Source: Promethearchaeia archaeon (GTDB lineage: Archaea; Asgardarchaeota; Lokiarchaeia; Sigyniarchaeales; SOKP01). Taken from it: a stretch of 56,235 bases of DNA. Location of the stretch: assembly GCA_029856145.1 (NCBI GenBank), contig JAHQWK010000006.1, positions 1 through 56,235 on the forward strand. The letters run 5' to 3'. This document shows positions 28,067-35,425 of the stretch, piece after piece (position 1 is the first letter of the stretch; each line of letters begins with the position of its first letter). Below the pieces are notes generated by a model. The model searched no databases. It was not told the DNA's origin and worked only from the letters and a program-made list of their open reading frames with translations. Position numbers and translations under genes: made by a program.

Positions 28067-28510
28067 TTAAGCTCTGTCAATGGATAAATATTTCTTTTGT
28101 CTCAAAAATATTGTATTAATCTTAATTATTTTTGCTTTTTTACGCAATTCTGAATCATTTGTCGCCAGATATATGTTTTGATTTTCCAATTTTAAGTTTT
28201 TTAACATTCTTAGTATAAAATCATCAGTAGTTTCATTTTCTTTTTTGATATACTCCAAGATTCCAATATTATACTTTTGCTTATTTTTTTCTAGGTATAA
28301 TAACCCTGATTCAAGGAACCTTTTAAAATTAGTAGCTCTCGGGTCCCTCTTTCTTTTCGATTCTAATTCATTAAGAATTTGTTGATATATTATAAATCTT
28401 AAGTTTCCTTCAATTTTTAATCGAATTTCATCAAAATAATCTATTTTAAATTGAAAAGGAAGTAAAATGAAATTAGAATCGATTACAACTAAATTCTTAT
28501 TGGATTTCAA
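28067..28510 (-). CDS. PIN-domain ribonuclease, Fcf1/Utp24-like
   Basis: VVIDSNFILLPFQFKID, ILNELE, TDDFIL, LATNDSELRKKA...IFLRQKKYL. Confidence 0.85.
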   Translation of the reverse strand: MKSNKNLVVIDSNFILLPFQFKIDYFDEIRLKIEGNLRFIIYQQILNELESKRKRDPRATNFKRFLESGLLYLEKNKQKYNIGILEYIKKENETTDDFILRMLKNLKLENQNIYLATNDSELRKKAKIIKINTIFLRQKKYLSIDRA

Positions 28511-29028
28511 TAGGCTTGGCGCTCTAATATTTTTCTTGTTAAAACATCGAAAGCTTTTTGAACATTTTCGCCCGTTTTGGAAGAAATTTTGAGATAATCA
28601 ATCAAATTAAATTCACTAAGAAAAGATTTTGCATAATCGTCTTCGACCATGATCTCATCATCTAAATCTAATTTTGTACCTAAAAAGAGAACAGGAAGAT
28701 CTGGGGCACCTTTCCGCACAATATTAAGCCATTGTTGCAAATTTTCTAAAGTGGTTATTCGAGTAAGATCAAACATTAACAATGCCCCCTTAGCTCCTAA
28801 GACGTAACTTTCAAGTAAAAAACGAAATCTTTCTTGTCCACCGAAATCCCAGAGCTGCAATGTACAATGTTTGGAATCAATCTCGGTCTCTTTTAAAAAA
28901 AACTCCACCCCGATAGTCATTTTTGTCTCGGCCGAGAATTTTCCCTCGACATACCTGTGAAGCAGTGTTGTTTTCCCTACTCCTCCTTCCCCTGCAGTCA
29001 TTATTTTGAGTATATACTTGGCCGGCAT
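28507..29028 (-). CDS. Rab-like small GTPase
   Basis: GEGGVGKT, TIGVEF, WDFGGQERF, TKLD, ISSK; paralog of 27432-27947. Confidence 0.93.
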   Translation of the reverse strand: MPAKYILKIMTAGEGGVGKTTLLHRYVEGKFSAETKMTIGVEFFLKETEIDSKHCTLQLWDFGGQERFRFLLESYVLGAKGALLMFDLTRITTLENLQQWLNIVRKGAPDLPVLFLGTKLDLDDEIMVEDDYAKSFLSEFNLIDYLKISSKTGENVQKAFDVLTRKILERQAY

Positions 29029-33471: not shown

Positions 33472-33699
33472 ATGGTTATTATGCCACTTCGATTTAATTT
33501 TTGCCCACATTGTGAAGAAAAAATAATATTTGAAATTGAGATGAAAGACATTAATTCTAGCCATTATCCTGCTCCAGTTTATATCGTATGCAAACTGTGC
33601 CATAAATTATCAACATTTTATGTGGACAGTTTCTTACGAGTATCTTATAAAGAGCTTGATAAAAAAACAGGTGGTATCACGACGATTAATACACAATGA
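33472..33699 (+). CDS. Small Zn-finger protein
   Basis: CPHC...YPAPVYIVCKLCH; 75 aa. Confidence 0.6.
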   Translation: MVIMPLRFNFCPHCEEKIIFEIEMKDINSSHYPAPVYIVCKLCHKLSTFYVDSFLRVSYKELDKKTGGITTINTQ

Positions 33700-33823
33700 T
33701 AGATTTTATAGCTATTTTTTTTTAACAAACCCTATATATTGATTAATTTAATAAAAAATACTACCTTAATTGTTCTTAGGAAACTAAATATATAGGAGTT
33801 AAAAACACTAAAATTAAATTAAT

Positions 33824-35425
33824 ATGTCTTATAAATTGGAAGATGTAAGTGGAATTGGAAAAGCAACGGCAGAAAGATTAAAAACAGCCAAAATTGATTC
33901 TGTTGAAAAGCTTGCTAACGCTAAACCAGAAGATTTATTAAAGCTAAAAATAAAGGGTGTTGGAAAAGCAACGGCCGAGAAATATATTGCAAATGCAAAA
34001 AAAATGCTAAAAGAAACAGAGATTCCAGAACAATCATCTGGTGAAGTAAAAGAAAAACCTGAAGAAAAATCTGATTCAAAACCTAAAGCAAAACCTAGAC
34101 CAAAGCCAGTTTCAAAAGCGGAGGTTAGTAAGCTAAAAGAATTGATAAAACAACAAGCGGAATGTAATATAGGGCTCGTAGGGCATGTAGATCATGGAAT
34201 TTATTGAAGGGCTCCTTCATAGAACATAAAGACAACCCTAGTAAAAACCCTAACAGGAGATTGGACAGATAGGCATTCGGAAGAGCAAGAAAGAGGAATT
34301 TCAATAAAATTAGGGTATTCTAATGCTACTATTTTATGTTGTCCAAATTGCGACGAGTATATAACATATTACCTAGCTGAACAAGCAAGGAAAAAAGGAG
34401 AAACTCGATTTTTATGCCCTCAATGTAAAGAACAGTTAGAATTTAGAAGAAATATTTCATTCGTCGATGCTCCTGGCCATGAAATCTTAATGGCAACAAT
34501 GTTAAGTGGAGCTTCATTGATGGATGGGGCATGTTTATTAATCGCTGCTGATGAGAAATGTCCTCAACCACAAACAAGAGAACATTTAGAAGCATTACAT
34601 ATTGCAGATATAGAAAACATAATTATACTACAAAATAAAATAGACGCAGTTTCACGAGAGCAGGTAAAGGAGAATTATCAACAAATTAAAGAATTTGTTA
34701 AAGGTACCATTGCTGAAAAAGCCCCCATTATACCAATTTCAGCAGTATTTGGCGCTAATATAGGTTTAGTTTTAAGAGCATTCGAAGAAATTATTCCTTC
34801 CCCTGTACTTAGTGAGGGAGATTTCCAATTTTTAATAGCTAGATCTTTTGATATTAATCGTCCAGGGAAAGAAATCAATAGCTTAAAAGGGGGCGTAATA
34901 GGTGGTTCAGTTTTAAAAGGGAACATCAATATTGGCGATCAAATTGAAATTCGACCGGGTTTAAGAGTTAAAGATAACTATATTCCTCTAAAATCCACTA
35001 TTGTAAGTATTAGTCAAGGAAACAATCTATTGGATAATGCTAAGCCGGGAGGGCTTATAGGTTTAGGAACAAAATTAGATCCCGCTTTAACCAAGGGTGA
35101 TCACTTGATAGGTCATTTGGTTGGAAAACCGGATACTTTACCCGATGTTTTGGATGAAGTAGAATTAAAAGTAAATCTTTTAGATAGAGTAATTGGCGTT
35201 GAACAAATGCTCCGAGTACATTCACTTAAGCATAATGAAAAATTATTATTAGTTGTAGGAACAGAAAAGACGGGAGGTACAGTAACAAAAATCTTAAAAA
35301 ATACTGTTATTCTAAAATTAAATCCTCCAATATGTCCTCCAGAAAAGTTTATCTACGCAATTTCGAGAATTATAAACAGACGTTATCGATTAATTGGATA
35401 TGGAGAGACAGTAAATCATAATTAA
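33824..35425 (+). CDS. eif2g: Translation initiation factor aIF-2 gamma with N-terminal HhH domain, interrupted by a putative 30-nt intron; join(33824..34199,34230..35425), 523 aa
   Basis: Joined frame reads [41 protein letters not shown]...CPNC...CPQC...SFVDAPGHEILMATMLSGA...PQPQTREHL...QNKID...PISA...ARSFDINRPG; the two listed ORFs share one frame. Confidence 0.92.
34200..34229 (+). other. Putative archaeal (BHB-type) intron in aIF-2 gamma mRNA
   Basis: 30-nt insertion inside the P-loop with in-frame TGA and TAG; internal UGAAGG/CCUUCA hairpin; 3-nt bulges AAU and AAA flank the 4-nt helix AUGG/ACAU. Confidence 0.75.

Follow-up and report, generated by a model that had tools for sequence, protein, structure and literature searches.

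How does an archaeon make the translation initiation factor aIF2-gamma from a gene whose reading frame breaks off inside the P-loop, and by what route did the interruption arrive there? The locus lies on the plus strand of a 56,235-nt stretch of DNA (the window) from a Promethearchaeia archaeon (G000), represented by a 3.55-Mb metagenome assembly that is 97% complete and has 5% contamination.

A 30-nt insert splits the P-loop of the only aIF2-gamma gene

The P-loop Lys codon of aIF2-gamma is interrupted in phase 1 by a 30-nt insert (34200 to 34229, plus strand) that contains two in-frame stops, TGA and TAG. Excision of 30 nt at 34198 to 34227, 34199 to 34228 or 34200 to 34229 rebuilds the GHVDHGKT motif, and no other register does so. 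Exon 1 (33824 to 34199, plus strand) encodes an HhH domain (HHH_5), a linker, and G1 as far as base one of the Lys codon, while exon 2 (34230 to 35425, plus strand) encodes the remaining G domain together with domains II and III (GTP_EFTU, GTP_EFTU_D2 and eIF2_C). When the insert is removed, the gene specifies a 523-aa HhH-aIF2-gamma fusion that reads through the predicted exon junction GAUCAUGGAA↓AGACAACCC, with the Lys codon joined as GGAA↓AG; when it is retained, the frame ends at 127 aa. These observations agree with the initial annotation, which had described the insert, its stops, its three removal registers and the 127-aa product of unspliced mRNA. A second intact copy, for which that annotation had recommended a search, was not found in the assembly by tblastn or by an eIF2_C family search, and aIF2-gamma is single. 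The insert must almost certainly be spliced from the mRNA for aIF2-gamma to be made.

Homologues of this protein are labelled Promethearchaeota or Lokiarchaeota, and the N-terminal HhH fusion is found in intronless ones too. An orthologue without the intron matches a solved aIF2-gamma with an E-value of 1e-139. In this order aIF2-gamma begins with an HhH domain and a Lys/Pro-rich linker (window positions 33824 to 34150), both missing from the solved archaeal proteins, which are about 410 aa long.

Upstream, a conserved gene for a 75-aa Cys-rich, zinc-ribbon-like protein (33472 to 33699, plus strand) serves as a synteny anchor. The spacer between it and aIF2-gamma (33700 to 33823, plus strand) is empty in this genome, and is the place where intron-bearing relatives hold a LAGLIDADG gene or its remnant. 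Elsewhere in the window (28507 to 29028, minus strand) there is a gene that, by its motifs, would encode a small Rab/Ras-like GTPase, as is typical for Asgard genomes.

The insert recurs at one position in relatives

An insert at the same position occurs in 30 genomes from 9 genera, among about 125 genomes of the family in which the gene could be scored, as well as in nine further metagenome contigs; within the genus, 6 of 54 genomes carry it. The inserts are 29, 30 or 32 nt long, and most are of the frame-shifting 29-nt length. None was present at this site in the other Lokiarchaeia families searched, and aIF2-gamma is uninterrupted in the closed sister-family genomes checked, so cultured strains may be without the intron. 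Only one removal register, which cuts at GGxA↓A[AG], is shared by all 27 genomes tested; in five of them it is the sole possibility. This register matches the cut positions set by the BHB rule, and in the present genome it corresponds to removal of 34200 to 34229 by cutting after the second base of each bulge, just as had been proposed.

Two further loci deserve mention. In an assembly from another Asgard class (G279, L138), a 30-nt, GC-rich insert lies one base downstream in aIF2-gamma and forms a perfect CGGC/GCCG helix; it is probably an independent gain. Another assembly (G128) contains both an intronless aIF2-gamma and an intron-bearing fragment (C106 and C165; L160), and a mixed bin is likely given its contamination of 8%.

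The predicted BHB structure is conserved, with compensatory change

In the present genome, the exon strand AUGG (34194 to 34197) of the central BHB helix faces the intron strand ACAU (34224 to 34227), with a 5' bulge AA↓U (34198 to 34200; predicted cut after 34199) and a 3' bulge AA↓A (34228 to 34230; predicted cut after 34229), all on the plus strand. Three central pairs out of four are formed, which places the motif in the relaxed class; the fourth is a G.A mismatch where most relatives have the intron strand CCAU or CUAU. Within the intron is a hairpin with covariation support (34201 to 34223, plus strand; core UGAAGG at 34205-10 with CCUUCA at 34214-19), which has a predicted energy of -5.7 kcal/mol and a z-score of -2.6. 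The exons are drawn together by a long stem (34170 to 34252, plus strand) in which 34170-74 pairs with 34248-52, 34179-83 with 34236-40, and 34186-88 with 34232-34, for a duplex energy of -14 kcal/mol. In the lowest-energy fold, U34200 pairs with A34223 and UGU at 34186-88 pairs with ACA at 34232-34, and forcing the BHB costs 1.2 kcal/mol. In this fold the UGU/ACA stem takes the place of the outer pairs U34192-A34232 and C34193-G34231 given in the initial annotation, which made no mention of the long exon-exon stem.

By itself this motif is weak. Three Watson-Crick pairs are also obtained in 5% of intron shuffles, and chance readily yields helices of the class with three of four pairs (bioRxiv 10.64898/2026.10.13.758758). 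It is the relatives that settle the identity of the intron. In a set of 29 introns, 109 of the 116 cells of the central helix are paired (94%), as compared with a mean of 56 and a maximum of 76 in shuffles and at most 55% in slid controls, and all four pairs form in 22 of the 29. In G091 a compensatory double change gives ACGG/CCGU, through a silent exon change from CAT to CAC and the matching intron base. The same-site Asgard inserts with a covarying BHB that the initial annotation had advised looking for are therefore found, in 30 family genomes and with a compensatory exon-intron change. Among intron alleles, 26 of 27 use CAT for the His codon that contributes to the central helix, versus 27 of 57 among intronless alleles. 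Comparison of the two sequence subtypes gives 42 double-change cells in the inner hairpin, a figure inflated by kinship, where shuffles give 15. The mean energy of the exon-exon duplexes is -16 to -18 kcal/mol in alleles with the intron versus -9 to -10 kcal/mol in those without, a gap of about 7 kcal/mol, and the stems are formed by different pairings in different genera. Taken from these patterns of change, the structure of the intron is under selection. The encoded protein is constrained as well, with dN/dS of 0.04-0.21 for intron-bearing pairs (G-domain onward), similar to that of intronless pairs.

Splicing machinery and the proposed reaction

The genome encodes two full-length EndA paralogues, one at about 135.5-136.1 kb of C11 and the other at about 98.9-99.5 kb of C24, and RtcB. 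A catalytic-motif His is present in one EndA paralogue and missing from the other, as read from their sequences, which fits a two-subunit enzyme; cutting of relaxed mRNA motifs has been reported for EndA of the hetero-oligomeric type (PMC2738675). We propose that exon AUGG would pair with intron ACAU between the two 3-nt bulges in a fold braced by the inner hairpin and the exon-exon stem, that two-subunit EndA would cut after 34199 and 34229, and that RtcB would then join the exons and rebuild the Lys codon of GHVDHGKT. On this comparative evidence, the insert is very probably an EndA-spliced BHB pre-mRNA intron, and the part of the initial annotation that saw an EndA-type intron in an essential gene's mRNA stands on strong grounds; its further suggestion of a regulatory switch fares differently and is taken up below.

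A self-splicing intron of group I or II was rejected, as the insert is only 30 nt long, compared with a group I/II core of hundreds of bases, and an Rfam search with it returned no real match. A metagenome pattern scan that allowed 0-30 nt at the junction gave no match to the flanks of the subtype found here, and the same kind of scan for another subtype gave nine matches, all unspliced. Neither a spliced transcript nor a spliced peptide appeared among the pattern matches or the near-identical proteins traced, all of which come from DNA contigs. Full-length proteins close to those of intron-bearing genomes derive from intronless contigs, and the ones checked differ in junction codons or have neighbours on both strands.

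Similar inserts interrupt other genes

A comparison that makes no use of the motif, between this genome and its closed relative G005 over 820 kb of alignable DNA, found three frame-breaking inserts of 29-30 nt. Besides that in aIF2-gamma, a short histone-like gene has a 29-nt insert of BHB type four codons from its start (C1:34460-34488, plus strand), the gene being intact in G005, and rps3 has a 30-31 nt insert (C8:31453, minus strand) with two of four central pairs. Four more inserts, each of 30-31 nt, were found whose removal restores a signature motif: in mvk (C3:203065, plus strand) and nifU (C10:33334, plus strand), both with four of four central pairs, and in cspA (C6:11627, minus strand) and uppS (C3:195615, minus strand). 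Scanning this genome for BHB motifs without a reference showed no enrichment, with 15 candidates versus 11 and 13 in frame-shifted controls. Nor did the genome contain copies of the aIF2-gamma insert, as a tRNA intron or otherwise, the best match being 14 nt with an E-value of 0.19; the uppS insert resembles it weakly (p 0.01, one of six tests). ARAGORN found 17 tRNA genes, every one of them with an intron. At C25:80350 (plus strand), an apparent hydrogenase delta (MvhD-like) subunit gene contains an in-frame TGA, and a tRNA-Sec is called on C8; this codon more likely represents selenocysteine than an intron.

Beyond this genome, 10 of 135 family genomes have a 31-33 nt intron at the homologous P-loop position of EF-1alpha (L280-L289). 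It forms a perfect AUGG/CCAU helix, and some examples resemble the 29-nt aIF2-gamma subtype.

A LAGLIDADG endonuclease gene accompanies the intron in some relatives

In G120, an ORF of 490 aa with two LAGLIDADG-like motifs (L208:4715-6187, minus strand) lies between the 75-aa gene and aIF2-gamma. The same endonuclease has long open frames in three metagenome contigs and is frameshifted in G136, and scraps of its C-terminal part lie upstream of aIF2-gamma in G123, G111, G156, G029 and, weakly, G107. Its core matches I-DmoI (E 2e-6) and I-SceI (E about 1e-6) in Foldseek, using a model of moderate confidence (pLDDT 69), and Pfam LAGLIDADG_3 is detected in 4 of 12 family members, the G120 protein not being one of them. 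Of the 27 intron genomes whose spacer could be measured, 7 have the endonuclease gene or a remnant directly upstream, versus 0 of 46 intronless loci, and the spacer exceeds 200 nt in 12 of 27 versus 0 of 46, counts that overstate independence because the genomes are related. In the genome studied here the spacer is of normal length, and a search of the whole genome found no trace of this endonuclease family or of any LAGLIDADG gene; three other genomes of the 30-nt subtype likewise have a normal spacer without an endonuclease trace.

The association is repeated at other genes. The closest relatives of the endonuclease are encoded about 400 nt upstream of the EF-1alpha intron, which measures 32-33 nt at these loci, with a clear gene in 6 of the 10 cases. 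Members of the same family adjoin 30-31 nt inserts in rpoA1 (L235), EF-2 (L273), rpoN (L247) and the THWDRE motif of GH38 (L234, L236 and L237), and further inserts of this length lie beside endonuclease genes at L253 and L276. In a class I aldolase-like gene (L290-L292, in G099, G109 and G034), a 32-nt insert near the 3' end has a helix with four of four pairs, the endonuclease is encoded just downstream, and in two of these genomes the tail of the aldolase-like gene is duplicated beyond the endonuclease. Overall, an insert is next door at about 17 of 50 endonuclease loci sampled, versus three per 820 kb in the comparison with G005.

The state of the aIF2-gamma site changes readily. The best tree, a quick and effectively unrooted one that gives no direction of gain versus loss, needs 13 changes in intron presence, and well-supported branches force at least 8 of them. 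Over the 16 codons around the site, intron and intronless sisters show 65 silent differences versus 30 expected, with an excess in 8 of 8 pairs (degeneracy-matched); the corresponding figures are 91 versus 59 for intronless pairs and 13 versus 19 for intron pairs. The excess spans about 50-70 nt, the same tract as the exon-exon stem. It implies either that a change of intron state replaces a short tract or that selection on the stem rewrites it, and thus the silent-site excess may reflect selection on RNA structure. The flanks of G024 are shared with G000, G001 and G046 and not with its own sisters.

We suggest that the intron interrupts the predicted DNA target of a free-standing LAGLIDADG enzyme, which is encoded just upstream in relatives. 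The enzyme would cut intronless alleles, so that intron and enzyme gene would be copied in together by collaborative homing, and the enzyme gene would later decay to leave an orphan intron such as the one described here. Judged from sequence comparison, collaborative homing is the probable route of arrival across the family, and for the 30-nt subtype of this genome we lean towards it slightly.

Another possibility, which we consider unlikely, is that the intron is old and has become patchy through precise loss. This would accommodate an intron that is found in most genera and also in the one that branches deepest among those sampled, and the single hairpin register that the two sequence subtypes share through compensatory changes; a route of this kind has been proposed for cbf5 (PMC2738675). 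Precise loss leaves flanks intact, yet silent sites differ 2.2-fold over expectation, and it does not predict an endonuclease that is never found beside an intronless allele or an endonuclease-intron pairing that recurs at other genes. Moreover, this genome encodes no PF00078 reverse transcriptase, and none of its tRNA introns matches the insert.

Probably a passenger rather than a switch

Splicing might be kept by selection as a switch, either by tying aIF2-gamma output to EndA and RtcB or by toggling to the 127-aa HhH protein, as the initial annotation had envisaged. The gene is for an essential translation factor, its unspliced mRNA ends after the HhH domain, and the site has been retained across 9 genera. 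Against this, about 95 of 125 family genomes, roughly three quarters, do without the intron, close sisters differ, and at least 8 state changes have occurred on the tree. The tail of the unspliced product, 2-13 residues beyond Gly, is not conserved, and similar inserts lie in at least six other, unrelated genes of this genome (histone, rps3, mvk, cspA, nifU and uppS). The selfish-endonuclease linkage in relatives accounts for the site with no host benefit needed. A switch is thus quite improbable, and the intron is most likely a harmless passenger.

It is also conceivable that no splicing takes place, and that the ribosome hops the hairpin by programmed bypassing or reads through. In T4 gene 60, a stop codon and hairpin follow GGA at the bypass site, and the arrangement here, a GGA codon and then a stop codon and hairpin, is loosely similar. 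Bypassing is nonetheless very hard to credit, as there is no matching landing codon, the inserts vary among 29, 30 and 32 nt, and Lys can be obtained only by joining inside its codon. Past the insert, the next in-frame codon is TAG in G024 and CAG in G046, and the TAG of G024 excludes readthrough and codon-level hopping. Finally, an assembly artefact or decaying pseudogene, to which a metagenome assembly with contamination lends some colour and which had been named as grounds for abandoning the intron, has next to no chance of being correct, given diverged versions of the insert in independent assemblies, purifying selection on both exons and the lack of a second copy.

Discussion

The aIF2-gamma intron works like that of cbf5 in Desulfurococcales and Sulfolobales, for which splicing is proven (Watanabe 2002; Yokobori 2009, PMC2738675), and every testable feature of a BHB intron was found. 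Both are short BHB introns, often relaxed, that split the codon of a key residue after base one, and both go with hetero-oligomeric EndA and patchy presence among relatives. Here, however, the gene and phylum are different, at least seven such inserts occur in one genome, turnover is far greater, relatives link the intron to a free-standing endonuclease, and splicing is predicted where that of cbf5 is proven. Haloferax HVO_1309 (PMC7714728) similarly provides an mRNA substrate for the tRNA splicing endonuclease, but its intron is in the 5' UTR, with no reading frame depending on it, whereas that of aIF2-gamma is within the coding region. These two cases, cbf5 and one Haloferax 5' UTR, are the only archaeal EndA mRNA splicing in the searchable literature (PMC7714728), and our searches for an aIF2-gamma intron, Asgard mRNA splicing or Asgard homing endonucleases returned nothing relevant from a corpus that lies largely outside subscription journals.

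Asgard tRNA introns resemble the aIF2-gamma intron in size class, motif, two-paralogue EndA and repeated gains. The papers that describe them (PMC11291895; bioRxiv 10.64898/2026.10.13.758758) deal with tRNA genes only and leave the arrival route open; in the text of the latter, neither 'mRNA' nor 'homing' occurs.

The closest parallel for the proposed route is cyanophage psbA, where a free-standing endonuclease targets the intron site in collaborative homing (reviewed in PMC3984707). Shared with it are an ORF-less intron, a free-standing endonuclease adjoining a conserved site, what may be replacement of the flanking sequence, and the eventual decay of the enzyme gene. The psbA intron is a group I ribozyme in phages, in contrast to a 30-nt protein-spliced intron in an archaeal chromosome with a LAGLIDADG enzyme and a predicted target. 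The LAGLIDADG enzyme I-DmoI is encoded in an archaeal rRNA BHB intron. Introns of that kind likewise combine BHB splicing with an enzyme of the I-DmoI fold, but here the intron does not contain the enzyme gene, and it interrupts a protein gene.

Overall, an essential initiation factor that needs EndA splicing, in the lineage closest to eukaryotes, broadens the known range of this process, and gene callers list such split genes as truncated. We think it rather likely that EndA splicing of essential mRNAs is routine in Loki-type Asgard archaea, and that the introns of about 30 nt are the immunity half of a mobile LAGLIDADG pair. In such a two-part element, the LAGLIDADG gene would settle next to a conserved gene, and the host allele would be protected by a BHB micro-intron lying in the target. 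The endonuclease link could account for the placement of inserts at the most highly conserved motifs and close to the ends of genes, and it makes testable the arrival route of Asgard introns, which a 2026 preprint (bioRxiv 10.64898/2026.10.13.758758) presents as the central open problem. If true, the mobile two-part element would be a concrete route by which introns enter protein genes of the archaeal lineage nearest to eukaryotes.
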